Below, piece by piece: positions 2,124-49,418 of a stretch of 64,000 nt of DNA. The notes below the pieces were generated by a model. The model was given only the letters and a program-made list of their open reading frames with translations, was not told the DNA's origin and did no database searches. A program made the position numbers and the translations under genes. Source of the stretch: Frankiaceae bacterium (GTDB taxonomy: Bacteria; Actinomycetota; Actinomycetes; JAFAQI01); contig JAVEEI010000131.1 in assembly GCA_030840525.1 (NCBI GenBank), positions 526 through 64,525 of the forward strand, read 5' to 3'. Every line of letters starts with the position of its first letter. Positions within the stretch are counted from its first letter, which is position 1.

Positions 2124-3521
2124 CGGACCGTCTCCACGAGCTCGCCGAGCGACTCCTCTATGCACAACGCGATCACGTCGACGTCCGGCATGGCGTCACG
2201 GTCGGCGTTCAGCCCGTAGTACACCCCGCCGTTGTACGACGTCAGCCCTACGGTCACAGCTTGCTCCTTCGCGAGCGGTACGACGGGGTAGCACTCCAGC
2301 ATCTGTGCCCCGGCCGCGTACAGCGCGAACTGCGGGCCGGGCACGTTCGTGACGACGACATTGAACAGCCGCCGGGTCATCCGCGCGCCCAGCCTCGCCG
2401 CGGCGGCGTGGATCGTCGGCGGGGCAAACCCGGACAACGAGATCAAAGCGTCCGCGCCGACGGACTGGCCGGAGTCCTTGTGCGCCTTCATCGCGTACGA
2501 GACCCGGTGCAGGCGGACCAGCGGGCTGGCCTCGCCGACCGGCAGGTCGACGAAGATCGCGGAGACCCGGTTGCCCAGCGTCCCGGTCTGCTCGCCGGTG
2601 CGGACGCTGACGGGGACCATCGCGCGGACCGTGGTGGCCGGGGTGACCGACTCGCCGCGGGTCAGCAGCCAGGTGCGCAGCGCGCCGGCGACGGTGGCGA
2701 GGACGACGTCGTTGACCGTCCCGCCGTGCGCCTTGCGCACCCGCTTGTAGTCGTCGAGCGCGGTGGCCGCCATGCCGTAGCGCCGCTGCTCGCCGACCGT
2801 CGCGTTCAGCGCCGAGGCCGGGGCGGGGCGCAGCGAGGTACGGACGGTCGCGAGCACGCCGGCCGCCGTACCGAGCGCTCGCTCGGCGGTCGCCCGGGCG
2901 TCGGTGACGCCGGTACGCAGTGTCTCGACGACCTGGCTCGGCCGGCGCAGGTTGTCGACGATGGCGTCGGCGACGAGCGACAGGCCGCTCGGCGCGGGGC
3001 CGGGCAGCCAGCTGTCGCTCGGCAGGTCGTCGGGCGGAGCCGGCGAGTCGTCGAGGATCAGCGCGCCGACGTCGACGGCACTGACACCGTCGACCATCGC
3101 GTGGTGGGTCTTCGTGATGATGGCGAACCTGCCGTCGGCGAGGCCCTCCACGAGGTAGATCTCCCAGAGCGGGCGGTTGCGGTCGAGCTGGCGGGACTGC
3201 ACCCGGCCGACCAGCTCGCGCAGCTGGTCCGCGCTCCCCGGCCGCGGCAGCGCGCTGCGCCGTACGTGGTAGGAGATGTCGAAGTCCTCGTCGTCGACCC
3301 ATACCGGGTTGGCGAGGTGGCCGGGCACCCAGCGGACGACCTGCCGGTAGCGGGGTACGGCGGCGATCCGGTGGGCGACGAGGTCGCATAGCGCGTCGTA
3401 GTCGAACGGCTCGCTGCTCTGCGGCGGGGCGAAGATCGCGACCCCGCCGACGTGCATCGGCGTCGTCGGCGTCTCGAGGTAGAGGAACGAGACGTCGAGC
3501 GCGGAGAGCCGGTCGCTCACA
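2120..3521 (-). CDS. Wax ester synthase / diacylglycerol O-acyltransferase (WS/DGAT, Tgs-like)
   Basis: HHAMVDG catalytic motif (HHxxxDG) in an approximately 467-aa protein. The N-terminus [12 protein letters not shown] is typical of WS/DGAT. GTG (VSDRLSALD) at 3521 overlaps the HAD gene's stop. Confidence 0.85.
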
Positions 3522-4188
3522 CGGCCGCCAGGTCGAGCCGGAAGTGGGCCGCGAGCTCGGCGACGGTCTGAGCGGGGTCGACGTGCCGGATGCCGGTCAT
3601 GCCGACCTGCTCGGCGGCGCGGACGTTCGGGCCGAGATCGTCGACGAACACGCAGTCGGCCGGCGCGACGCCGAGCCGCTCGGCGGTGAGCAGGTAGATC
3701 TCCCGCTCCGGCTTGCGCAGGCCGACCTCCCCGGAGATGACTGTGACGTCGAACAACGCGTCCCAGTCGGTGCGGTCGTAGTCGAGGCCCCACGAGTTGG
3801 ACAGCAGGGCGGTCGGGTGACCCGCGGCGCGGATGCGCCGTACGACGTCAACCATGGCGGGCGCGGCCTGGAAGCCGGCGAACATCCGCCGGAGCATCCC
3901 GTCGGCGGTCAGCGGCCGGCCGTCGACGCTGCGCAGCTCGGCGGCCAGCAGCCGCTCGAACTCCGCTGCGGTGAGCTCGCCGCGCTCGAGCCGGTAGGCC
4001 GGGTTCGCGCCCGGGTCGGTGTCGCGCAGCCAGGTCGTCATCAGCGTGCGGAAGTGCTCGTTGTCGATGCCGTCGCCGTCGCACCAGGCGCGCATCGCCT
4101 CGTCGAGCGGGCTGGTGAGCACGCCGCCGTAGTCGACGACGAGCGCGCTCACGCCCGCCGCGCCGTGTTCCGAGCGGGATTCGGTCAT
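3517..4188 (-). CDS. HAD-like hydrolase family protein
   Basis: VVDYGGVLT motif-I-like segment (second Asp replaced) and a [13 protein letters not shown] motif-IV-like segment. 223 aa with an ATG start. Confidence 0.6.
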
Positions 4189-4221
4189 CGCTGCCGATGT
4201 TATCCGCGCGCTGCCAGCGGG

Positions 4222-4797
4222 CTATCCGCGCGGCGTCGTGCACACCGCCGGCGACGGCGCCGCGAGCCCGAGGTCGCGAGCTTTCGCGGCGGCGGCCTCG
4301 GCCGGGGTGGCGAGCCGCCGGAACCCGCTGCTGATGTCGAGCTGGACCGTGCCCGGGGTCTGCGTGGACAGCTCTTCGATCTGGGCGCCGGCCACCTGCT
4401 CGGCGAGGGTCAGCGCGAGACCGGTCTCGCCCGGGGCGTAGACCACCCGCGGCGGGCCGGTGGTCGAGGGGCCGTTGCCGACCTTGACGACGGCGAACCC
4501 GCGCAGCGTGAGCTGGCCCGCGACCGTGTGCGCGAGCCCGACCCGCGCGGTGCCGTTGAGTACGGCGACCTTGACGGTCTTCGCCGCGGCCGGCGAGGGC
4601 GACGACGACGGGGTCGCGCACACGGCGAGCGGCCGGGCCGGCGCGCCGCTCTTGCCGCCGTGCCAGGCCCGCCAGCCGAACCAGCCGCCGGCGGCGGCTG
4701 CGGCGAGCACCAAGACGGCGACGACGTACGGCGTCTTTGTCCTGCGGCGGCGGCCGCGGCGTCGGGGGGCGAGGTCGCCGCTGCCGAGGATCGTCAC
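4222..4797 (-). CDS. LytR_C (cell-envelope-related transcriptional attenuator C-terminal) domain membrane protein
   Basis: TM helix ([16 protein letters not shown]) followed by [34 protein letters not shown], typical of LytR_C. GTG at 4797 is in frame. Confidence 0.6.
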
Positions 4798-6092: not shown

Positions 6093-7418
6093 TCAGGCAC
6101 GGCGCCACCGGCCTCGCTGCCGGGCCGCCGCCAGTCGCCGACCGGCGCCTCGTAACGCACCGGCGCCTCGTAGCTCACCGGCGCCTCGTAGCTGAGCGGC
6201 TAGCGCGGCCAGCGCGTGCCGCGCGGGGCTGGACGGCGCGGCCTCGACCAGCGTGCGGGCTCGCATGACGGCCCGGTCCACCGCGGGTTGGTCGAGCGGC
6301 ACGAACGCATCCGGGGTGACCGACGCGAACCGCCGGAGCGCCTCGCCGACCTGCGCGCACGGGTCGCCGGGCCCCACCGCGCGGGCGCGGACCCGGTTGA
6401 CCACGACGACCGGCTCGGCGCCCGGCGCCGCCTCCCGAAGCTCGGCGAGCCCGCGGACCAGCCGCTGGAGCCCGACCGGGTCGGCCGTCCCGACGGCGAC
6501 GACCGTGTCGGCAGCGCGCAGCGCGGTGAGGGTCGCGCCGTTGCGCTGCGGCGCGACAGTGTCGTAGGCCAGCTCCTCGTCCTCCTCCAGGCAGAAGCCG
6601 CAGTCGACGACGACGTACGCGCTTACCGTCCGCGCCAGCGCGAGGACGGCCGCCGCGGCGCTCGGCCGTACCTCGTCCCACCGGTCGGCCCGCGCGATGC
6701 CCGTGAGCACGCGCAGCCGGTCGCCGACCCCGCGCGCCAGCCCGGCGAGCGCGGCCCCGTCGAGCCGCCCGGCGTTGGCGAGCCGGCAGGCGGACGCGAA
6801 CCCGGCGATGTCGTCGAGCACGCCGAGAGCCGGCGCGATGGTCCCGCCGTACACGTCCGCATCGACGAGGACGACCTCGTCTCCGGCGGCGGCGAGCTCG
6901 GCGGCGAGACCGATCGCGACGGTGGTCCGGCCCGGCGCGCCGGCGGGGCCCCAGACGGCGATCAGCCGGCCGACACCCTCCGCGGGCTCGCCATCGTCGG
7001 GCTCACCCGGCGGCGCTTCGGACGGTGCGGTGGTGGCCGGCGCGTGCGCGGGACTCATCGCGTCGACGGCCGCGCGCATCCGTACGACGACTTCCTCGGT
7101 GGGCGCGTCGGCCCCGATCAGGTGCGTGACACCGAGGCGGCGCAGCGTCTGCTCCGCCTCCGCGTCGTCGGGTCGCACGAGCGCGAGGACGGCGACTCCC
7201 ATGAGGTCGAGCCGCGTGACGACGTCGCGATCGAGCCGGCGCAGGTCGGCCGACGCGACGACGGCGCTCGCGATCCCGGCACTCGCGGTCGCGAGCAGGT
7301 CGGCGACGTCGACGCAGCGGCGCACGACCGCGACGCCGTCGGCGCGGGACAGCCCGGCGACCAGGTCGGCCTCCCACCGCGGGTCGGCGATCGCGGTGAT
7401 GACGGACAGCGTCACGTG
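6093..7418 (-). CDS. Ssd/CpaE-like ParA/MinD-family ATPase (septum-site-determining-like)
   Basis: N-terminal receiver-like domain, then GRTTVAIGLAAELAAAGDEVVLVDADVYGG (deviant Walker A of the CpaE/Ssd subgroup). GTG at 7418 with ccggaggg upstream overlaps the cpaB-like stop. The C-terminus carries an (LRGAGx)3 repeat. Confidence 0.7.
   Translation of the reverse strand, partial: HVTLSVITAIADPRWEADLVAGLSRADGVAVVRRCVDVADLLATASAGIASAVVASADLRRLDRDVVTRLDLMGVAVLALVRPDDAEAEQTLRRLGVTHLIGADAPTEEVVVRMRAAVDAMSPAHAPATTAPSEAPPGEPDDGEPAEGVGRLIAVWGPAGAPGRTTVAIGLAAELAAAGDEVVLVDADVYGGTIAPALGVLDDIAGFASACRLANAGRLDGAALAGLARGVGDRLRVLTGIARADRWDEVRPSAAAAVLALARTVSAYVVVDCGFCLEEDEELAYDTVAPQRNGATLTALRAADTVVAVGTADPVGLQRLVRGLAELREAAPGAEPVVVVNRVRARAVGPGDPCAQVGEALRRFASVTPDAFVPLDQPAVDRAVMRARTLVEAAPSSPARHALAALAAQLRGAGELRGAGALRGAGRRLAAARQRGRWRRA
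6138..6191. repeat. 18-bp tandem repeat, 3 copies (caccggcgcctcgtagct), inside the 3' end of the ATPase gene
   Basis: Direct visual repeat. It encodes the LRGAGELRGAGALRGAG tail on the minus strand. Confidence 0.6.
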
Positions 7419-8089
7419 CCCCCTCCGGCACCGGCCGGAACAGCGACGAGGTCGACCGCACCGGACTCCGCGGCCCGCACGACGTCGGCGACGCGGTCGG
7501 CCGGTACGACGAGAACGACCGACAGCGCGGCGTCCGCGCCGAACGTCCGGCCACCGCTGGGGCGGGCCTGCACGACCGCGGCGGCGAGGACGAGCGACGG
7601 CGGAGCCGGGCCGCTGGTGCTTGACCCACCGGCGGATCGCGGGCTCAGGTAGACGTCGACGCGGTCGCCCGGCGCGAGATCGGGCGGCAGGTGCCCGGCC
7701 TGCACAGGCACGGTGACCAGCCGCGACGAGTCGGTCCGCGGCGACGCCGCGAGTGCGGCCGCGGGCAGCAACTCGCGCGCTGCGACGAACCGCACGACGA
7801 CGTATCCGGCCGGCGCGGCGCCGGTGAGATAGCCCGCGGCGGCCTCGTTGAGGCGGACCCGCACCGGTGTCAGGTCGCCGGCCGCCACCCGCTCGCCCGG
7901 CGCGAGGTCGTGGGCGGCGGCCCACACCGTCGTCTCCCGGCTCGCGGCGGCGAACAGCCGCGCGCCGCCGACCATCGAGCCGAGCAGCAGCACGATCCCG
8001 AGCACCGCGCGCGTGTCGAGCCACCGCCGCGACCCCAGTCGCAGCGCCGCCGGCGACGCCACGCCATCGGCTCTCCGCCCGTCGTCCAT
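7412..8089 (-). CDS. CpaB/RcpC-like SAF-domain protein
   Basis: N-terminal TM helix (LGIVLLLGSMVGGARLFAAA), SAF-like region and an Ala/Pro-rich C-terminus. ATG at 8089. Operon partner of the ATPase. Confidence 0.65.
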   Translation of the reverse strand: MDDGRRADGVASPAALRLGSRRWLDTRAVLGIVLLLGSMVGGARLFAAASRETTVWAAAHDLAPGERVAAGDLTPVRVRLNEAAAGYLTGAAPAGYVVVRFVAARELLPAAALAASPRTDSSRLVTVPVQAGHLPPDLAPGDRVDVYLSPRSAGGSSTSGPAPPSLVLAAAVVQARPSGGRTFGADAALSVVLVVPADRVADVVRAAESGAVDLVAVPAGAGGGT

Positions 8090-8132
8090 TCGCTACCCTC
8101 CCGTCCGTTCGATCGTCTCCCGAGCAGGACTG

Positions 8133-8152
8133 CCTACCATTGGGTAGGTACG
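8133..8152. promoter_or_regulatory. Palindrome cctacc-attg-ggtagg in the divergent promoter region between the cpaB-like and HTH genes
   Basis: 6-bp inverted arms seen directly. The position suits an operator for the adjacent HTH protein. Confidence 0.25.
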
Positions 8153-8252
8153 CGGAGCAATTCGCGTCGTCGCGGTTGGGGACGGCGCGCCCGCAGAACG
8201 CGACTGTGGACGACGCGACCGCGGCCGGCGAGACCTGCCAGACTCTGGGCCG

Positions 8253-8504
8253 ATGGACCGACCGCGGTTTCTCCAACTCGCCGACGTGGCGGAGATCCTC
8301 AATATCTCCGCGGCGCAGGCGTACGCGCTGGTGCGCAGCGGTGAGCTGCCCGCCATCAAGGTGGGCGGCCGTGGGCAGTGGCGGGTGGAGCACGAACAAC
8401 TCGAGCAGTACATCGCCCGGGCATACGCCGAGACGAAACGGTTCGTCGAAGAACATCCGTTCGGCCGCACGGATGCGGAAGTCGGCGCGGCCGACCTCGA
8501 CTGA
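8253..8504 (+). CDS. Helix-turn-helix DNA-binding protein (excisionase/MerR-like family)
   Basis: LADVAEILNISAAQAYALVRSGELPAIKVGGRGQWRV is a classic excisionase-family HTH. 83 aa. Confidence 0.75.
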   Translation: MDRPRFLQLADVAEILNISAAQAYALVRSGELPAIKVGGRGQWRVEHEQLEQYIARAYAETKRFVEEHPFGRTDAEVGAADLD

Positions 8505-8535
8505 GCGCCGGGTGAGCCAGGTCAGGTGAGCCCGG

Positions 8536-9071
8536 TCAGGTGAGCCGTAGGGAGGCGACGGCGGCGAGCGGCAGGCAGCGTTCGGCGCGCGCGGACCGCG
8601 GCTCGGGGCCGATGTCGACGAAGTCGGCACCGACGCGGCTCACCGTCCCGCGGAAGTCGGTGCCGTTGCGCAGGCGCACGTGTACGACGCGGCGGTCCCG
8701 TGCGGTCGCGCGGAGGACGGAACCGACTCCCAGCCGTTGATCCACCGGCGAGACTGCCGCCGGATCCACAGCGCGGGGTGGCAGCCCCTCTACCCACATG
8801 GTCGCCGCCGCGAGCACGAGAAGCTCGCCCGCTGCGCCATCGTCGATGAGCAGCCAGTCCGGTCCCACGCGGTGCACCCGGCCACGGACCGGGCTGGACC
8901 CCTCGAGGCCCAGCGTGAGGTCGCGGCCGGCGGCGGCGCGCAGCCGGTCGACGAGGTGCAGGCGGGCGAGCTCCCGGCGGGTCCGGTCGGCCACCTCCCC
9001 GGCGAGCTCGCGCCGCTCCTCGGCGTCGAGGTCGGCTTCCAGCTCGTCGATCAGCCGCTCCCACTGCATCC
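8536..9071 (-). CDS. Conserved hypothetical protein
   Basis: ATG (MQWERLIDELEADLDAEERREL...) at 9071; 178 aa; no family recognised. Confidence 0.5.
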
Positions 9072-10537: not shown

Positions 10538-10559
10538 CATGCGGTGCCGAGGAGGCGTC

Positions 10560-13610
<3,051 letters not shown>

Positions 13611-13742
13611 GGTTGGCTCCCTGCTCGTCTAGTCGGTCTCGGCTGCTCGTCGGCTCGGCGTCGCGCACCGCCAAGGCACACATCGTAGGCGTGCTCGGGC
13701 CGGATTGGCCCGGCTGCGCGGGTGGCAGGCCATGATCGGCGA

Positions 13743-15245
13743 ATGTCGACGGCGCACCTCGACCTCGCCTTGCTGGCGGGCGCCGGGGTGCTGCTCGCCG
13801 CGGTCGCGGGGGTCAGGCTGTCGTCGCGGCTCGGCGTGCCCAGCCTGCTGCTGTACCTCGGTCTCGGCATCCTGCTGGGCGAGGACGTCATCGGCGTACG
13901 GTTCGACGACCCCGCGCTCGCCCGCAACATGGGGCTGGTCGCGCTTGCCCTGATCGTTGCCGAGGGCGGCCTCACCACCGAGTGGGCGGTCATCCGGCCG
14001 GTACTGCCGGCGGCCGTCGCGCTGTCGACGGTCGGGGTCGCGGTCAGCGTCGCCGTCATGGCCGCCGTCACCCATCTCGTCCTCGGCCTGCCTTGGCGGG
14101 CGGCCGTCGTGGCCGGCGCGGTCGTCTCGTCCACCGATGCGGCGGCGGTGTTCGCGACCCTGCGGTCGTTGCGGCTGCCGGCGCGGCTCGTCGGCGTCCT
14201 CGAGGCCGAGTCCGGGCTGAACGACGCCCCCGTCGTGATCCTCGCGACCTTGTTGTCGACCGGGCACTCCGGCGCCGGCAATGTCGCGGCGCACGTCGGC
14301 TACGAGCTGGCCGTCGGGGCCGGCATCGGTGTCGCGGCCGGGGTTCTCGGCGCCTCGGGGCTGCGGCGGGCGGCGCTACCGGCGGTCGGGCTATACCCGA
14401 TCGCGACGCTCGGCGTGGCGATCGCGTCGTACGCCGCGGCCGCGAGCGCGGCGGCGAGCGGGTTCCTCGCGGTTTATGTGACCGCGCTCATCCTCGGCAA
14501 CGCCACCCTGCCGCACCGGCGGGCGACGCTCGGGTTCGCGAACGGGGTCGCTTGGTTGGCGCAGATCGGGTTGTTCGTCATGCTCGGGCTGCTGGTCACG
14601 CCGAGCCGGCTCGGGTCGGCGCTGCTGCCGGCGCTCGCGATCGGGGCGGCCCTGCTCGTGGTCGCGCGACCGCTGTCGGTCGCAGCGAGCACTGTCGGGT
14701 TCCGGTTCGGCTGGAGGCCGCAGGTGCTCGTCGCGCTCGCCGGGCTGCGCGGCGCGGCGCCGATCGTGCTCGCGACGATTCCGCTGTCGGCGCACGTGAG
14801 CGGAGCGCGCCGGCTCTTCGACGTCGTGTTCGTGCTCGTCGCGGCGTTGACGTTGCTGCAGTCGCCATTGCTCGCGCCGGCGGCCCGGCGGCTGCGGCTC
14901 GTCGACGACGACGCCGGTCGCGACCTCGACGTCGAGGCAGCGCCGCTGGACCGGATGCTCGCCGACCTCGTGACGGTGACGATCGGCTCCCGGTCGAAGC
15001 TGCACGGCGTCGAGGTCTGGGAGCTGCGCTTGCCGCCGACGGCGGCGGTCGCGTTCGTGGTCCGCGCGGGCGAGGGCTTCGTGCCGGACCGGCGTACGAC
15101 GCTGCGTCATGGCGACGACCTGCTCGTCGTGGTCGCCCGCGCGGAGCGGGCCGCGGTCGAGCAGCGACTGCGTGCGGTGGCGCGCGACGGCCGGCTCGCG
15201 CCGTTGCCTGCCGCTGCCGCCGCACCCCGGCCGCGGCGACGGTGA
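13743..15245 (+). CDS. K+/H+ (cation/proton) antiporter, CPA1/NhaP2 family, with C-terminal TrkA-C-like domain
   Basis: Multi-TM N-terminal domain (GLGILLGEDVIGVRFDDP..., LEAESGLNDAPVVILATLL) and a regulatory C-terminus. A GTG at 13722 is an alternative start. Confidence 0.8.
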   Translation: MSTAHLDLALLAGAGVLLAAVAGVRLSSRLGVPSLLLYLGLGILLGEDVIGVRFDDPALARNMGLVALALIVAEGGLTTEWAVIRPVLPAAVALSTVGVAVSVAVMAAVTHLVLGLPWRAAVVAGAVVSSTDAAAVFATLRSLRLPARLVGVLEAESGLNDAPVVILATLLSTGHSGAGNVAAHVGYELAVGAGIGVAAGVLGASGLRRAALPAVGLYPIATLGVAIASYAAAASAAASGFLAVYVTALILGNATLPHRRATLGFANGVAWLAQIGLFVMLGLLVTPSRLGSALLPALAIGAALLVVARPLSVAASTVGFRFGWRPQVLVALAGLRGAAPIVLATIPLSAHVSGARRLFDVVFVLVAALTLLQSPLLAPAARRLRLVDDDAGRDLDVEAAPLDRMLADLVTVTIGSRSKLHGVEVWELRLPPTAAVAFVVRAGEGFVPDRRTTLRHGDDLLVVVARAERAAVEQRLRAVARDGRLAPLPAAAAAPRPRRR

Positions 15246-24450: not shown

Positions 24451-25664
24451 GCCCAGGTATGAGCACAGCTATGAGCACAGCCGTCGCCGAGTCCCCGGCG
24501 GAGACCCGACCAGCGGGTCCGCCGTACGACGAACCGCCCGCCCCGGACTTCGCCGGGTGGCTGCGCCGGGCGTGGCGGCCGGTGCTGCTCGTCGCTCTCG
24601 TCGTCGCGACCGCGGTCGGGCTGGCGGTCGTCGGGTCGGCGCCGGTCGCGCGGCCGCTCGACCCCACCGACGCGTCGCCCGACGGCGCGCGCGCAATCGT
24701 CGCGTTGCTGCGCCAGCAAGGTGTCGAGGTACAGACGGCCGACAGCGTCGACGCGCTCACCTCGTCGGGTGACGCGACCGTCGTCGTCTCGGTACCCGAC
24801 GTCCTCGGGCCGAGCCAGCTCGCCAGCCTGTCCGCGACCGACAGCGACCTCGTCCTCATCGCGCCCGGCGACGACGCGCTGTCGATGCTCGGCCTTCCGG
24901 TGCACGAGGCCGGCGACGTCGCCGCGGACAAGGTCGGGCCGCACTGCGACCTGCCGGCGGCGACGTCGGCCGGCACGATCACCGTCGACGGGCCGGTCTA
25001 CACGGCGAGCGGCGACGTCGCGCAGAGCTGCTACCCGGTCGCGGGCGAGCACGCCGTCGTCGTCACGAAAGGGCCGGCCGGCAACAAGGTCACCGTCGTC
25101 GGGTCGCGGGCGGTGTTCGCCAACCGCACCCTCGGCGACGACGGCAACGCGGCGCTCGCCCTCGGCCTGCTCTCCGACCACCCGCGCCTCGCCTGGCTGA
25201 TCCCCGTCGCGCCGACGGAGGCGACCGACACCCAGCGGCACGGCCTGTTCGAGCTGCTGCCGGGCCGGCTCGGATGGGCGTTGCTCGAGGTCGGCGTCGC
25301 GTTGCTGCTGTTCGCGGTGAGCCGGGCCCGCCGGCTCGGACCGCTCGTCGCCGAGCCGCTGCCCGTCGTCGTACGTGCCACCGAGACGGTCGAGGGCCGC
25401 GCCCGGCTGCTTCGCGGCGCGCGGGCCCGCGGGTCCGGCGCCGACGCGCTGCGCGCCGCGGCCCGGCGCCGGCTCGGGACGAGGCTCGGGCTCGGCGCCG
25501 CGCCCGACCGGGCCGCGCTCGTCGACCGCGTCGTCGCGCGCACCGGCCGCGGCGCCGACGACGTGTCCGATTTGCTGTACGGTTCCTCCCCGGCAGACGA
25601 CCGCGGCCTGGTCGCGCTCGCGACCGCACTGGACCGGCTCGAAGAGGAGATGCGCCGACAGTGA
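24447..25664 (+). CDS. DUF4350-like protein
   Basis: ATGA overlap. N-terminal TM helix, a periplasmic-type domain and a second TM helix near the C-terminus. Conserved position upstream of MoxR. Confidence 0.55.
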   Translation: MSPGMSTAMSTAVAESPAETRPAGPPYDEPPAPDFAGWLRRAWRPVLLVALVVATAVGLAVVGSAPVARPLDPTDASPDGARAIVALLRQQGVEVQTADSVDALTSSGDATVVVSVPDVLGPSQLASLSATDSDLVLIAPGDDALSMLGLPVHEAGDVAADKVGPHCDLPAATSAGTITVDGPVYTASGDVAQSCYPVAGEHAVVVTKGPAGNKVTVVGSRAVFANRTLGDDGNAALALGLLSDHPRLAWLIPVAPTEATDTQRHGLFELLPGRLGWALLEVGVALLLFAVSRARRLGPLVAEPLPVVVRATETVEGRARLLRGARARGSGADALRAAARRRLGTRLGLGAAPDRAALVDRVVARTGRGADDVSDLLYGSSPADDRGLVALATALDRLEEEMRRQ

Positions 25665-29870: not shown

Positions 29871-31316
<1,446 letters not shown>

Positions 31317-42779: not shown

Positions 42780-45242
42780 TTACGCAGGAACCGCGTACGT
42801 CGTCGTCCGCTGGCGCGCCGGTCGGCCCGCGGCCGCCGCCATCGCGACGAGGTCGGCGACCTCCTTGCTCGAGCCGTGCGCGCTGCCGGCCATCCGGCTG
42901 ATGGTCTCCTCCATCAACGTGCCGCCGAGGTCGTTGACACCGCCGCGCAGCACGGTGACGCACGCGTCCGGGCCGAGCTTCACCCAGCTGCACTGGATGT
43001 TGTCGATCTGGCCGTGCAACAGGATCCGCGCCATCGCGTGCACGGCGCGGTTCTCCAGCACGGTCGGCCCCGGCCGGGCCAGCCCGGCGAGGTAGAGCGG
43101 CGCGTTGAGATGCACGAACGGCAGCGGCACGAACTCGGTGAACCCACCGGTCTCGTCCTGCAGCCGCGCGAGCAGCTTGAGGTGCGCGACCCAGTGCGCG
43201 GGCGTGTCGACGTGGCCGTACATCATCGTCGACGTCGTCGGGATGCCGAGCCGGTGCGCCGTCGTCACGACCTCGACCCACGTCGCCGCCGGCAGCTTGC
43301 CCTTCGTCAGGATCCAGCGCACGTCGTCGTCGAGGATCTCCGCCGCCGTACCGGGCAGCGAGTCGACGCCGGACTCCTTCGCCTTCGCCAGCCAGTCGGC
43401 GATCGACAGACCGGTGCGGGCCGCGCCGTTCACGACCTCCATCGGGCTGAACGCGTGCACGTGCAGCTGCGGCTGCCGCCGCTTCACTTCGGCGGCGAGG
43501 TCGAAGTACGCCGACCCCGGCAGGTCCGGGTGGATGCCGCCCTGCATGCAGACCTCGGTCGCGCCGGCCGCCGCGGCCTCGTCCGCGCGGACGCCGACCT
43601 GCTCGACCGACAGCGTGTAGGCGTCGGCATCGGTACGGCGCTGCGCGAACGCGCAGAACCGGCAGCCGGTGTAACAGACGTTGGTGAAGTTGATGTTGCG
43701 GTTGACCACGAACGTGACGTCGTCGCCGACGGCGTCGCGGCGCAGCCCGTCGGCGAGCGCGGCAAGCGCGTCGATCTCCGCGCCCGGCGCGGCGTCGAAC
43801 AACGTCAACGCGTCGCTGTCGGAGAGCGTCGACGGCGCGCGCTCGGCATGCCGCAACGCGGCCGCGAACTCCGCCCGGACGCGGTCGCTGCGCTGCCGCT
43901 TCTTTTGCTCGAGCTGCGGCACCGCGAGCGAGCCCCAGTCGCCGTACGCGGTGTCGAAGTCGGAGCGGCGGTCGGCCGAACGTCCGTCGGTGTCGATGCT
44001 GCGGTGCAGGTCGGTCCGGCCGCCGTCGGACCAGCCGCCGTCGGGCTCCTGCCAGGGCAGGCCGCGCGGCAGCATGTCGACGCGGGCGAGACCGCGATCG
44101 TCGGCGAGCGCGGCGACGTGCGGCCGCAGCCGCGGGTCCAGCCAGGGCTCGTCGAGGTACGGCGGGTGCGCGGCCAGCCGCTCGGTCAACACGAAACCCG
44201 CGGCGCCGGTGACGGCGGCGAGGTCGTCGAGGTGCGGCCACGGGCGTTCCGGGTTCACGTGGTCGGGAGTGAGTGGCGAGACGCCGCCCCAGTCGTCGAC
44301 GCCGGCCGCGAGCAGCCGCCGGCACTCGTCGAGGTCGACAAGGTTCGGCGGCGCCTGCACCCGCACGCCGGGACCGAGCAGGATCCGAGCAACCGCAACG
44401 GTCGCGACGTAGTCGTCGAGGTCGCAGTCCGGCGCCGCCTGCATCGCGGTCGCCGGCTTCGCGCGGAAGTTCTGCACGATGACTTCCTGCACGTGCCGGT
44501 ACTGCCGCGACAGCGCGCGCAGCGCGAACACCGACGCGACTCGGTCGGCGTACGTCTCGCCGATGCCGACGAGGATCCCGGTGGTGAACGCGACCGACGA
44601 GCGGCCGGCGTCTTCGATGCAGCGCAGCCGCACCGCGGGCACCTTGTCCGGGCTGCCGCGATGCGCCGCGACGTCGCCGGTCGTCTCGAGCATCAGCCCC
44701 ATCGACGGCGCGACCGGCTTGAGCCGTTGCAGCTCCTCCCACGACATGACGCCGGGGTTGAGATGCGGCAGCAGGCCGGTCTCTTCGAGCACCCGGATCG
44801 CCATCGCGCGGACGTAGTCGAGCGTCGTCGCGTACCCCGCCTCGGCCAGCCACTGCGCGGCTTGCGGCCACCGCATCTCGGGCCGGTCGCCGAGGGTGAA
44901 CAGCGCCTCCTTGCAACCGAGCACCGCGCCCCGGCGCGCGATGTCGAGCACCTCGTTCTCGGTGAGGTACGGCGCCGGCAGCCGGCCCGGTGTCGTCGCG
45001 AACGTGCAGTAGTGGCAGCGGTCGCGACACAACCGCGTCAGGGGGATGAAAACCTTGCGGCTGTAGGTGATCGTGCCCGGCCGGCCGAGCTCGGCGAGGC
45101 CGGTGTCGCGCACCCGCGCCGCGGTCGCGCACAACTCGTCGAGCGCCTCGCCGCGTGCGGACAGCAGCGTTTCGGCTTCGCTGTTGTCGAGGGTCTTGCC
45201 GGCGGCGGCGCGGGCGAGCGCACGTCGCAGCCCGCTGTCCAT
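42780..45242 (-). CDS. fbiC: FO synthase, bifunctional CofG/CofH (FbiC)
   Basis: 820 aa with two radical-SAM CxxxCxxC motifs ([10 protein letters not shown]; [10 protein letters not shown]) and a typical FbiC N-terminus. Confidence 0.95.
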
Positions 45243-45279: not shown

Positions 45280-46236
45280 ATGCGGATCACGGTGCTGGCC
45301 GGCGGCATCGGCGGCGCGCGCTTTCTCACCGGACTGCGCACGCTGGGCCACGACATCACGGTGATCGGCAACAACGGCGACGACGTCACGATGTACGGGC
45401 TGCGCATCTGCCCGGACCTCGACACCGTGATGTACACGCTCGGCGGCGGCATCAGCGCCGAGCGCGGCTGGGGGCGCGAGGACGAGACGTTCCGGGTGCG
45501 CGACGACATCGGCGCGTACGTCGGCGCGAGCGGCACCGACGACCTGCCGTCGTGGTTCGGTCTCGGCGACCTCGACCTCGCGACGCACCTGGTCCGGGCG
45601 CACTGGCTGGCCGAGGGGGTGCCGCTGTCGGCGGTGACGGCGCGGCTGTGCGCGCGGTGGGACCCCGGCGTACGGCTGCTCCCGTCGACCGACGACCGGG
45701 TCGAGACGCACGTGACCCTTGCCCACGGGGAACGCGTGCACTTCCAGGAGTGGTGGGTCCGGTTGCACGCGTCGGTGCCCGCGACCGCGATCGAGCTGTT
45801 CGGTGCGTCCGAGGCACGGCCCGCGCCCGGCGTCCTCGACGCGATCGCGGGCGCGGACGTCGTCGTGCTGCCGCCGAGCAACCCGGTCGTCAGCGTCGGG
45901 ACCATCCTCGCCGTACCCGGGATCCGCGACGCGGTCGTCGCGACGAGCGCGCCGGTCGTCGGGGTGTCGCCGATCGTCGGCGGCGCACCGGTCCGCGGCA
46001 TGGCCGACGCGTGCCTCGCCGCGATCGGGGTGGAGACGTCGGCGTACGCCGTCGCCCGCCACTACGGCGAGCTTCTCGACGGCTGGCTCGTCGACGAGGG
46101 CGACAAGGCGGACGCGGACCGGCTCAACGAGGAGGGCCTGCCGGCCCGCGCCGCACCGCTGCTGATGACCGACGTGGACGCGACCGCACGGATCGCGGAT
46201 GCCGCGCTGAGCCTGGCCGCGGACGTCCGGAAGTGA
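45280..46236 (+). CDS. fbiA: 2-phospho-L-lactate transferase CofD (FbiA)
   Basis: [20 protein letters not shown]-terminus and a CofD/YvcK fold. ATG at 45280, 37 bp from the divergent fbiC. Confidence 0.9.
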
Positions 46237-47276
46237 TCCGCATCTGGGGTGTCGACGGCATCCCGGAGATCACCGCCGGCGACGACCTCGCCGCCGTCAT
46301 CGCGTCGCGCAAGCCCGGCCTGCGCGACGGCGACATCGTCGTGGTCACCAGCAAGGTCGTGAGCAAGAGCGAGGGGCGGCTGGTCGCCGGCGACACCCGC
46401 GACGCGGCCATCGACGCCGAGACGGTGCGGGTGGTCGCGCGCCGCGGCGACCTGCGGATCGTCGAGACGCGGCACGGCCTGGTGCTGGCGGCGGCTGGCG
46501 TCGACGCGAGCAACGTCCCGGCCGGGACGGTCGCGCTGCTTCCGGTCGACCCGGACGCGTCCGCGGCGCGGCTGCGGGCCGGGCTGCACGACCGGCTCGG
46601 CATCGACGTCGGCGTACTCGTCACCGACACGATGGGCCGGCCGTGGCGCAACGGGCTCGTCGACGTCGCGATCGGCGCTTCGGGCGTCGTAGTCCTGGAC
46701 GACCACCGCGGCCGGGTCGACGACCACGGGCACACGCTGGAGATGACGGTCACCGCGCTCGCGGACGAGGTCGCGGCCGCGGCCGAGCTGGTGAAAGGGA
46801 AGCTCGACAAGGTGCCCGTGGCGGTCGTCCGCGGGCTGGGCCATCTCGTCGGCGGCGACTCGGCCGGACGCGCGGCCGACCTGGTCCGCCCGCCGGACGA
46901 GGACCTTTTCCGCTGGGGCGCCCGCGAGGCCGTGCAGGCGGCGCTTAACACCGCCCGTCTGCGCGCCCAAGGCACACTTGAGGGTGCGCCGGACGAAGTG
47001 GTCGATGCTGCGATCGCCGCAGTCCACTCGGATGGCGTGGTCCTCGTGCCGGTTTCGTCGGGCGACAGCCGCGTCGGCCACGTGCTCGCGTGCGTTCAGC
47101 GCGGTGAGGTGATCGACGAAGCTCAAGTACTTTCTGTCGGCAGGGTCGCCGAACGATTCGCGCTTTGGGTCGTCACCGAGGGCTGGTCGGCTGTCGTGAC
47201 GTCGTCGGCAACCGGAACAGCGCCCGCCGGGCTCGTCGCGGTGGCCACCATCCAAATGTCGAAGCTCGCTGAGTGA
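46233..47276 (+). CDS. fbiB: Coenzyme F420:L-glutamate ligase CofE (FbiB), short form
   Basis: GTGA overlap with cofD. CofE domain ([20 protein letters not shown]...[13 protein letters not shown]...[11 protein letters not shown]). It is only 347 aa, against about 448 aa for mycobacterial FbiB. Confidence 0.85.
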
Positions 47277-47368
47277 CTGCACGAGGCTGGGCGCTTGACC
47301 GATCGGCTCAGTCTTGACCGCTCTCGACGATCGGGTCGAAGGGAGCGCGACGGGCGTGACCGGAGTGT

Positions 47369-47893
47369 CTAGTCGTCCTCATCCGTGGAAACCGTGTCGG
47401 AGGAAGTGGCGCGCAGCTGCCGGGTAACTCCGAGGACGCCCACCGCGACGATGCCGGTACCGAAGATTGCGACTCCAACCGCCGTGGCGCCCGTCACGAT
47501 CGCGACGAAGCCGGCAGCGATCAGCGCCAATGCCAACAGGAACTGCAATACGGTGCCAAGCCGGGTGATGCGAGCTGGCGCGAGCTCCAGCTCGTGCCGG
47601 TGCCGCTGCTCGTCCCGAATGATGTCGATGATCTCCCGGGCGGCACCCTCCCCGAGGACCGAGTCGTACTGGGCAAGCATCTCCGGGTCGGGCCACGGAG
47701 ACGGCTCCGATGACGAGATGTGCAACGCCGCGAGGATGAACTCGACCGTGGCCTTGTCGACGTTCGGAGGCAGTTGCGCGAGTAGATCGTCGAATCCGCC
47801 CTGAGCCTCGCGGGGTACCACCTCGCCGGCCGAAGGCTGCTGAGACTCCGCGCCGGCTTCCCGCCGGGGACGGTCCGCCCCGGCCTCGCTCAA
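47369..47893 (-). CDS. DUF2335-domain membrane protein
   Basis: LAQYDSVLGEGAAREIIDIIRDEQRHRHELE followed by two TM helices. Local GC is visibly lower than the flanks. Confidence 0.6.
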   Translation of the reverse strand: MSEAGADRPRREAGAESQQPSAGEVVPREAQGGFDDLLAQLPPNVDKATVEFILAALHISSSEPSPWPDPEMLAQYDSVLGEGAAREIIDIIRDEQRHRHELELAPARITRLGTVLQFLLALALIAAGFVAIVTGATAVGVAIFGTGIVAVGVLGVTRQLRATSSDTVSTDEDD

Positions 47894-48309
47894 CGCCCGA
47901 TGCCGCGCATCGCTGCCTGACCGGGCCCGCCCGCGGCTATCCAGTTATCCATGCGCTTGTATGCGGCGGTCATGTCACGAGCTACGGCCTGCGCGTCTCC
48001 CGCCGGACCACCCGACCGGCCTGTCTTGAGCTGCTGACGCAACATCCGTCCAGCGCCCTTAGGGTCGATCAGAGCGTTGCTGACTAACGCAGCGGGCAAG
48101 ACCGGGTGGCTCTTGCCCGAACCCCTGGTCCCCCGGAAAACAAGACCCTCATGCCCATGGCTTCTGATGGCACTGCAGGTCGGGCACGCCTTCTTCCGGA
48201 TGGGCAGCATGTAAGCGTTCGTCGAGGCCCACTTTGAAGAGTTGGACAGGCGGAAGCCCTTCGCGGCGCTGCCGACCTTTACGATCGGCCGGCGCGGGGT
48301 CTTCGCCAT
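47890..48309 (-). CDS. Hypothetical basic protein with a CPTC motif
   Basis: ATG (MAKTPRRPIVKVGSAAKGFRLS...) preceded by aggagt at -6. Its stop abuts the DUF2335 start. Lower GC. No family recognised. Confidence 0.45.
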   Translation of the reverse strand: MAKTPRRPIVKVGSAAKGFRLSNSSKWASTNAYMLPIRKKACPTCSAIRSHGHEGLVFRGTRGSGKSHPVLPAALVSNALIDPKGAGRMLRQQLKTGRSGGPAGDAQAVARDMTAAYKRMDNWIAAGGPGQAAMRGIGR

Positions 48310-48497
48310 CGGACTCCTATCGGGCGGCGGGGCCTCGCAGCCAAGCCTAGTCACTCTCTGCGCATGTCATCGGCCAGCGGGCGGCGGCGATGAAGTCGTG
48401 TCGAACGCTACCGAGCATGTGAATGACACCGCAACGGCCCAACGCCCTCACTCGCCGTCATCTTCCGCGAGGCGCGTCGGGGTGGAATCTGCACCGG

Positions 48498-49418
48498 CTA
48501 GATCGCGCGGATGTCGCCGACCGGCATGCGCGGGCCGAACTTCGGCTTCTGCGCGCCGGACAGCTCCACCAGCCGGACGGCGCGCTGGCGATGCCCCGGG
48601 TACGCCGCCAGCACCTCCATCATCTCGTCGTCGTCGATGGGCCGGCCGAGCAGCGCCCAGCCGACGAGGGCCGGCACGTGGTAGTCGCCGTACGACACCT
48701 CGTCGGGGTCGCCCCAGGCGCGCTGCGCAACTTCCGCTGCCGTCCACCGCCCGACGCCGGGCACGGAACGCAACCGGCGCAGCCGCTCGTCACGAGGCAG
48801 CTCGATGCTCTCGTCGAGCCGGTGCGCGACCGCGGCCGCGCGCAGCACGGTCCGCGCCCGGCCGGGGTCGACGTTGGCGCGGTGCCACTCCCACGACGGG
48901 ATCCGCCGCCAGACCTCCGGGCCCGGGAAGACGCGCATGCCGTCCGGGGCCGGCCCGGGCGCGGGCTCGCCGTATCGGCGGACGAGGTGCCGCCAGGACC
49001 GCCGCGCCTCCTTGCCGGTGACGCGCTGCTCCAGCACGGCCGGCACCAACAGCTCGAACACCAGGCCGAGCCGGCACAGCCGCAGGTGCGGCAGCCGGCG
49101 CCACGTCTGCGCGACCAGCTCGTGCGCCGGCCGGAACCCGGTGACGTCGTCCGCGGCGCCGAGCAGGTCGGGCACCCGGGCGAGCATCCACTCGCGGCCC
49201 GGGCCCCACGCCCGCGCGTCGACCTCGCGGTCGCGTACGGCGAGGCGCAGGGTGACCGGCCCGTCGGGGGTGCGCGCGGTGCGCCACAGCGCCCCGTCCG
49301 GCCCGACCTGCTGCGTCGGGTCGCCCGGGCCGCGCTGCAAGGCGCCGAGCGTCAGGGTCAGCGAGACGGGAGCGGGCGCGGTCCACGCCGTCGCCACCTC
49401 GTCCGCGCACATCCCCAC
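48498..49418 (-). CDS. DNA-3-methyladenine glycosylase II-like (HhH-GPD family, AlkA-type)
   Basis: HhH-GPD segment (LRSVPGVGRWTAAEVAQRAWGDPDEVSYGDYHV) with the catalytic Asp context. Confidence 0.7.
   Translation of the reverse strand: MGMCADEVATAWTAPAPVSLTLTLGALQRGPGDPTQQVGPDGALWRTARTPDGPVTLRLAVRDREVDARAWGPGREWMLARVPDLLGAADDVTGFRPAHELVAQTWRRLPHLRLCRLGLVFELLVPAVLEQRVTGKEARRSWRHLVRRYGEPAPGPAPDGMRVFPGPEVWRRIPSWEWHRANVDPGRARTVLRAAAVAHRLDESIELPRDERLRRLRSVPGVGRWTAAEVAQRAWGDPDEVSYGDYHVPALVGWALLGRPIDDDEMMEVLAAYPGHRQRAVRLVELSGAQKPKFGPRMPVGDIRAI

Follow-up and report, generated by a model that had tools for sequence, protein, structure and literature searches.

How two small genes come to lie between two conserved neighbours of a core locus, and what their products might do together, is the question raised by a 64,000-nucleotide (nt) stretch of a Frankiaceae bacterium (assembly GCA_030840525.1, contig JAVEEI010000131.1, positions 526 to 64,525). 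This whole stretch is called the window below, and all positions refer to it. Along the locus, fbiC, cofD and fbiB are followed by the two genes of interest and then by an alkA-like gene, DUF3105 and a manC-like gene. The two genes, which encode a DUF2335 membrane protein of 174 amino acids (aa) and a basic protein of 139 aa, were regarded in an earlier note on this DNA as a horizontally acquired module in a conserved core region, and synteny comparison supports that view. The close relatives were taken to be the contigs coding for the closest FbiB homologues (L082, L083, L084, L085/L086, L087, L088 and L089). In all seven, fbiB and the alkA-like gene are directly adjacent, from a 4-nt overlap to +104 nt apart, with no gene between them. 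The contig L082 shares 92-94% nucleotide identity with the window on both flanks; its homology breaks off at 46943 and is taken up again at 48495. The distance from fbiB to the alkA-like gene in Streptomyces and Kitasatospora is 10-651 nt at 75 of the 76 loci. A relative of either protein is encoded by none of the seven close relatives and by none of these 76 loci. Since absence from the syntenic loci and deviant composition are found together, the two-gene islet is a lineage-specific gain, which is overwhelmingly more likely than repeated loss.

The extent of the islet was defined by base composition. The GC content is 66.8% at 47277-48497 and 73.6% in the window; 1.2-kb windows have a mean of 0.737 (standard deviation 0.028), which places this segment at a z-score of about -2.5. 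Equally low values occur in just two further patches of the 64 kb, at 11.4-13.8 kb and 29.8-31.4 kb. The GC content at third codon positions (GC3) is a much sharper signal of deviation than overall GC. It is 0.823 in the DUF2335 gene, 0.764 in the 139-aa gene and 0.730 in the last 111 codons of fbiB, compared with 0.944-0.979 in the flanks (fbiC, cofD, the N-terminal part of fbiB, the alkA-like gene, DUF3105 and the manC-like gene); against a value of 0.955, the binomial z-scores are -8 to -11. The compositional islet spans about 46944-48494 (about 1.55 kb) and takes in the 3' third of fbiB. The drop over about 1.2 kb described in the earlier note was thus recovered by both calculations, with GC3 at 0.73-0.82 versus 0.94-0.98; the two genes themselves (0.76-0.82) were set against eight flanking genes. 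The left start of the tract lies at about 46944 inside fbiB and not at 47290. Likewise, the module had been described as inserted between fbiB and the alkA-like gene, which is incomplete, because the foreign-looking tract also spans the last 111 fbiB codons. The first of two AT-rich strings quoted for the segment is exact at 47941-47963; the second was slightly misquoted and is unmatched within 3 mismatches, the actual letters being cccactttgaagagttggacagg near 48229.

The two other low-GC patches are of different kinds. The lowest of the window (11400-13800, about 65.5-67%) lies within an open reading frame (ORF) of 1049 aa at 10539-13688 on the plus strand, which has no Pfam match and may be another acquired or fast-evolving gene. 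The third patch, with about 68%, is the gene for S-adenosylhomocysteine hydrolase at 29871-31316 on the minus strand. This is a core gene, and therefore low GC alone is no sign of acquisition in this window.

A counterpart of the gene pair was found on the metagenome contig L001 (ENA ERZ25039604), with genes at 3550/3598-4068 and 4094-4678. On this contig, the gene that directly precedes the DUF2335 homologue encodes a protein that aligns with residues 49-120 of the 139-aa protein at 30-34% identity (pairwise E 3e-6 to 4e-6), and both partners have the motif L[IF]DPKG[AT]G..LR. Gene order and orientation are the same as in the islet, the DUF2335 proteins are 43% identical, and each pair has its own upstream region. 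Because the L001 pair is homologous for both genes in the same order, the two genes appear, from sequence comparison, to be a rare two-gene cassette associated with mobile elements. The contig has a GC content of about 52-60%, and the pair lies near genes for a single-stranded DNA-binding protein and a split TraG/TraD-type coupling-protein fragment, so that its surroundings look like a conjugative element. The two pairs also differ. The L001 partner is acidic (isoelectric point, pI, 5.2), lacks the basic extension with CPTC and HGH, and has an extra charged C-terminal part; the L001 genes are 25 nt apart, whereas those of the islet overlap. Homologous genes that are adjacent in the same order are thus known in two instances, the islet and L001, and the similarity of the partners is weak. 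No further pair was found in pattern scans of metagenome and viral contigs with two-sequence alignments; moreover, tblastn of both islet proteins and of P0003 (a relative of the DUF2335 protein, see below) against phages and plasmids was empty. Directly upstream of the L001 pair (3501-3529), a near-consensus sigma-70 promoter (TTGACT, 17 nt, TATACT) was observed in an AT-rich spacer.

The identification of a DUF2335 membrane protein in the earlier note was confirmed by the PF10097 model, which matches residues 68-103 with 35.8 bits (gathering cut-off 25, E 7.7e-9). Residues 59-167 also match phrog_3996 (E 2.3e-17), annotated as a membrane protein. PF10097 is described in Pfam as a predicted membrane protein, and PHROG 3996 as a phage membrane protein of the category moron, auxiliary and host takeover. 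The region in common with these families consists of a helical motif (PDPE...EQRHRHE) followed by two membrane helices. In the predicted layout, an N-terminus that is acidic and disordered is followed by a helical domain in the cytoplasm (about 42-110), by membrane helices at about 112-134 and 137-158, and finally by an acidic tail. The Kyte-Doolittle average over 19 residues exceeds 1.6 across residues 118-149, and the AlphaFold2 (AF2) model has helices at 84-133 and 137-167 in agreement with the hydropathy (predicted local distance difference test, pLDDT, 60). Both termini are predicted to be cytoplasmic, because basic residues flank the membrane helices on both sides.

Apart from itself, the 174-aa protein has one phmmer relative, P0003 (43% identity, E 3e-29), and it is a very divergent member of PF10097 and PHROG 3996. 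The second membrane helix (VAIFGTGIVAVGV) is glycine-rich and invariant between the two proteins. The N-terminus MSE.G is kept in P0003 as well, which supports the TTG start of the DUF2335 gene. This start overlaps the stop codon TGA of the upstream 139-aa gene (TTGA), and both ORFs are as the earlier note had described them, two tightly abutting genes on the minus strand. No DUF2335 protein of this kind was detected by tblastn in 50,697 phage records and 72,556 plasmid records. A Foldseek search against viral structures gave one borderline match to an unnamed protein (S5WJH0, E 0.014) and otherwise noise, and sequence searches of the PDB gave chance-level matches at most. That DUF2335 proteins are typical of phage or mobile contexts, as had been stated, is modestly supported by phrog_3996 and by the one homologous pair beside conjugation-type genes. 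No functional literature on PF10097 was found, and the family is named just in a data-mining paper. In papers on effectors of type VI and type IV secretion systems, DUF2335 is written for a phospholipase (Tle1) domain; this is probably a slip for DUF2235, which could mislead the annotation of PF10097 proteins.

The 139-aa protein begins with MAKTPRRPIVKVG. Its residues 1-72 are predicted to be disordered and contain C42-P-T-C45 and H51-G-H53; residues 73-134 are predicted to be helical and contain the motif LIDPKGAGxxLR. A word-indexed search of 5.8 billion proteins returned the protein itself only, and a full HMMER pass over 1.84 billion representatives gave no credible homologue. The weak HMMER matches P0004 and P0005 were treated as chance, their scores being inflated by internal repeats. 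No match was found in Pfam, PHROG, NCBIfam, PADLOC or the PDB, and an exact-match look-up in the contig index was empty. The earlier note had recognised nothing in this protein; the family and protein searches agree with that, but one distant counterpart does exist, paired with the DUF2335 gene on L001.

The two edges of the islet are different in character. On the left, 30-codon windows along fbiB showed a fall of GC3 at about 46911-46956, from values of 0.90 or higher down to 0.63-0.83. The tail has a GC3 of 0.73; the remainder of fbiB has 0.958, and the equivalent tails of five relatives have 0.86-0.94. Nucleotide homology to L082, the closest relative, ends at 46943; at protein level, homology of the tail to those of P0007-P0011 persists (27-39% identity). 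Between the window FbiB and P0007 the tail is 32% identical and the N-terminal part 89%, whereas the corresponding values between P0007 and P0010 are 55% and 85%. The spacer behind fbiB has no match to the spacers of the relatives, and no terminator-like hairpin or stable fold was detected at 47270-47380 (fold z-score -0.02). It contains two 11-nt direct repeats, CTTGACCG(A/C)TC, 19 nt apart, which could be due to chance. On the right, the edge is sharp, with 100% identity to L082 and a GC3 of 1.0 as soon as the stop codon of the alkA-like gene (48498) is reached. The ~31 nt of the alkA-like 3' end at this edge (TAGATCGCGCGGATGTCGCCGACCGGCAT) are invariant across all relatives, and a homologous crossover could be hidden in them.

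The spacer upstream of the 139-aa gene has no homology to the relatives either. A scan for consensus sigma-70 promoters was empty in this spacer, and by eye candidate elements were seen at TTGCGG (48434-48429) and TAGCGT (48410-48405), with an 18-nt gap, as well as TAGGCT (48349-48344). The AGGAGT ribosome-binding site (RBS) that had been pointed out before the second minus-strand gene was found at 48318-48313; among eight start regions inspected, a comparable RBS precedes just DUF3105 (AGGAG). The features of the islet are listed in the table.

Table. Features of the islet and its junctions in the window.
Feature	Position	Strand	Evidence or remark
fbiB 3' third: last 111 codons including stop, short FbiB C-terminal domain remnant	46944..47276	+	GC3 0.73, homology break
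Spacer of 92 nt between convergent fbiB and DUF2335 gene	47277..47368	.	67.4% GC
Gene for 174-aa acidic (pI 4.5) DUF2335 protein	47369..47893	-	PF10097, phrog_3996
Gene for 139-aa very basic (pI 11.6) orphan protein	47890..48309	-	ORF, ATG 48309
Shine-Dalgarno AGGAGT, 3 nt upstream of ATG 48309	48313..48318	-	Read from sequence
Upstream spacer of 139-aa gene, 185 nt, part of insert	48310..48494	-	67% GC
Right junction	48495..48528	.	Homology to relatives picks up 3 nt before alkA-like stop codon

Features of site-specific integration were also searched for at the islet, but no integrase or recombinase, no convincing flanking direct repeats and no terminator were found. The only tRNA of the window lies at 24566, and there was no Rfam match of note at the islet. 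The att-like sites or flanking direct repeats that the earlier note had proposed to look for were represented by short matches at chance level only. An imperfect 19-nt inverted repeat brackets both genes (47271-47289 and 48338-48356), one arm overlapping the stop codon of fbiB, while the other is located upstream of the gene for the 139-aa protein; the arms are 74% complementary with a perfect 8-nt core (GAGTGACT/AGTCACTC, at 47271 and 48349). This repeat is probably due to chance, because 53 such pairs occur in 1.8 kb. The suggestion of a phage remnant found no phage hallmark genes in its favour, its sole basis being the PHROG membrane-protein match.

The reading that we favour, with a confidence somewhat above even, is that a lower-GC donor contributed a segment of about 1.55 kb (about 46944-48494), which in this Frankiaceae lineage took the place of about 0.3 kb of native sequence where fbiB and the alkA-like gene converge, and that the cassette of this segment encodes a membrane-anchored complex carried as mobile-element cargo. 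Homologous allelic replacement from a lower-GC relative would be the best fit and the simplest account of the arrival. The left crossover would then lie in the conserved part of fbiB and the right one in the invariant 3' end of the alkA-like gene, and the donor would be a relative already bearing the cassette at the same locus. In this way the segment would have brought a divergent allele of the fbiB 3' tail, together with a self-contained bicistronic cassette having its own upstream region, a strong RBS and translational coupling (TTGA). Of the two products, one would be soluble and helical, extended at its N-terminus by a basic disordered region, and the other would be an acidic two-helix DUF2335 membrane protein. 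These might form a membrane-anchored complex, in which the cytoplasmic domain of the DUF2335 protein binds the helical domain of its partner and the invariant glycine-rich second membrane helix drives oligomerisation. The weakest step is the last one, a cargo role at the membrane, which might be, for example, the exclusion of incoming DNA or phage.

Several observations weigh against allelic replacement and the function proposed with it. The donor was not found, and neither protein turned up in scans of metagenome, viral, phage and plasmid sequences. Every lineage has a hypervariable fbiB tail, so that a break of identity on the left is expected anyway, and its low GC3 could be local decay under AT-biased mutation instead. 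Conservation of the gene pair amounts to two instances, with a partner similarity of 30-34% (pairwise E ~3e-6) and a partner charge that is not conserved (pI 11.6 here versus 5.2 in L001). The AF2 models are of low confidence for the 139-aa protein (pLDDT 40) and likewise for the DUF2335 protein (pLDDT 60). The exclusion role, the weakest part, would be drawn by analogy just from the PHROG moron category and the mobile context of a single homologue.

The most serious alternative for the arrival is that the same cassette was captured by illegitimate or end-joining recombination in the spacer between fbiB and the alkA-like gene, in which case the low-GC3 fbiB tail would be native and decayed. 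No donor allele is known, no repeats are present, the right junction falls exactly at the alkA-like stop codon, and the tail of fbiB, besides being hypervariable, is missing in part or entirely from sister lineages, all of which would fit such a capture. However, GC3 falls abruptly at about 46911-46956 to the level of the inserted genes, five relatives hold a GC3 of 0.86-0.94 in equally unconstrained tails, and the ORF of the tail is intact and still alignable; we therefore consider capture unlikely, though well ahead of the two explanations that dispense with acquisition. One of these is an artefact: metagenome assembly or binning would have joined two related populations into a chimera. The source is indeed a metagenome-assembled genome, and the boundaries fall on conserved sequence, where an assembler might switch paths; but the fbiB frame runs across 46944 into a homologous tail, and the relative-invariant stretch at the right junction (~31 nt) is short for assembler k-mers. 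In addition, 47208-48241 is reproduced with 100% identity in a Logan assembly made independently (L090), which argues against an artefact for the core of the islet and for the junction of fbiB tail and spacer, and a chimera is very improbable. Least probable of all, with hardly any weight, is that the genes belong to the ancestral core and that the relatives have lost them by deletion. In favour of this are the structural instability of the region in this clade and the sampling of only seven close relatives; however, many independent precise deletions would be needed to leave 7/7 relatives and 75/76 Streptomyces and Kitasatospora loci without the genes, and neither the deviant GC3 nor the virtual lack of homologues among 5.8 billion proteins fits an ancestral core.

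With regard to function, the pair could instead be a toxin-antitoxin-like or abortive-infection module, with the glycine-rich two-helix protein as a membrane-damaging effector checked by, or triggered via, its co-translated partner. The two small, overlapping and co-oriented genes with their own upstream region would suit such a module, as would the opposite charge of the products (pI 11.6 versus 4.5), the invariant glycine-rich helix and the mobile-element context of the sole homologue. However, neither protein has a match among the toxin and antitoxin families of Pfam, NCBIfam and PHROGs, or among the defence models of PADLOC-DB 2.0 even at E up to 1, and the idea of a defence system or a toxin-antitoxin-like pair in the earlier note thus gained no support. 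Moreover, the charge complementarity is not conserved in L001, a DNA-binding domain of the antitoxin type was not detected, and two instances only are available. A module of this kind is improbable on this evidence. Exclusion, toxin-antitoxin and abortive infection are used here as functional analogies and would not imply membership of these systems.

The fbiB gene itself (46233-47276) matches F420_ligase. The window FbiB has PF01996 only, and PRK13294 is matched over positions 13-281 of 449. The C-terminal nitroreductase-like domain PF00881, which we take to be the dehydro-F420-0 reductase domain of actinobacterial FbiB, is absent from the window FbiB and from its nearest homologues, as a comparison of the loci L082-L089 and the proteins P0007-P0028 showed. 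These nearest homologues are 237-348 aa long, have PF01996 only, and end either in a remnant of 90-110 aa that has lost about 50 residues internally, or in a hydrophobic tail of about 30 aa. More distant FbiB homologues of Frankiaceae and Mycobacteriales have 425-446 aa and contain PF00881. That the islet truncated fbiB by replacing the nitroreductase domain was ruled out, as PF00881 is missing from every one of the nearest homologues, several of which share a homologous short tail; the absence is clade-wide, and the loss of the domain therefore predates the islet. No stand-alone substitute was found within the window by tblastn. The C-terminal reductase domain of FbiB is regarded as a requirement of the F420 pathway in actinobacteria. 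Its loss or degradation in this clade leads one to ask how its members finish making F420, and may be of more biological interest than the islet.

On the other flank, the alkA-like assignment is weak (NCBIfam PRK10308, 35.9 bits versus a cut-off of 229). At the Streptomyces and Kitasatospora loci (L002-L081, about 7300-8900), the alkA-like gene beside fbiB is on the plus strand in 32/76 and on the minus strand in 44/76, which indicates that a single gene was inverted in place during Streptomyces evolution. Where fbiB meets the alkA-like gene, a few of them contain an additional 400-650 nt. Further upstream, a conserved protein of about 750-780 aa is encoded between whiB and fbiC (window 40642-42780, minus strand) and has no Pfam match in the relatives; the C-terminal end of the window ORF contains repeated PAKKAAAAKK motifs and resembles a histone-like basic tail.

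Taken by itself, the islet is a real but fairly ordinary horizontal gene acquisition, a routine strain-specific gene gain. It is also a clean and well-bounded case of a tiny accessory cassette in a conserved core locus without any recombinase, and it gives DUF2335 a candidate obligate partner and a mobile-element association. A more far-reaching proposal, which we put forward as speculative and rather unlikely, is that the DPKG-motif protein and the divergent DUF2335 protein constitute an undescribed and very rare two-component membrane module. Such a module would be cargo of conjugative elements, movable into the core by flanking homology, and might act by exclusion, abortive infection or in a toxin-antitoxin-like manner.

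Comparison with known systems showed partial similarities. Like type II toxin-antitoxin operons, the islet is a small bicistronic and translationally coupled pair with products of opposite charge; unlike them, it has neither family homology nor a DNA-binding domain, and one product is a 174-aa membrane protein. Compared with classical genomic islands and prophage remnants, the islet is only about 1.5 kb long and lacks an integrase, a tRNA, att-like repeats and phage structural genes; however, the deviant composition, the absence from relatives and the accessory genes are common to both.

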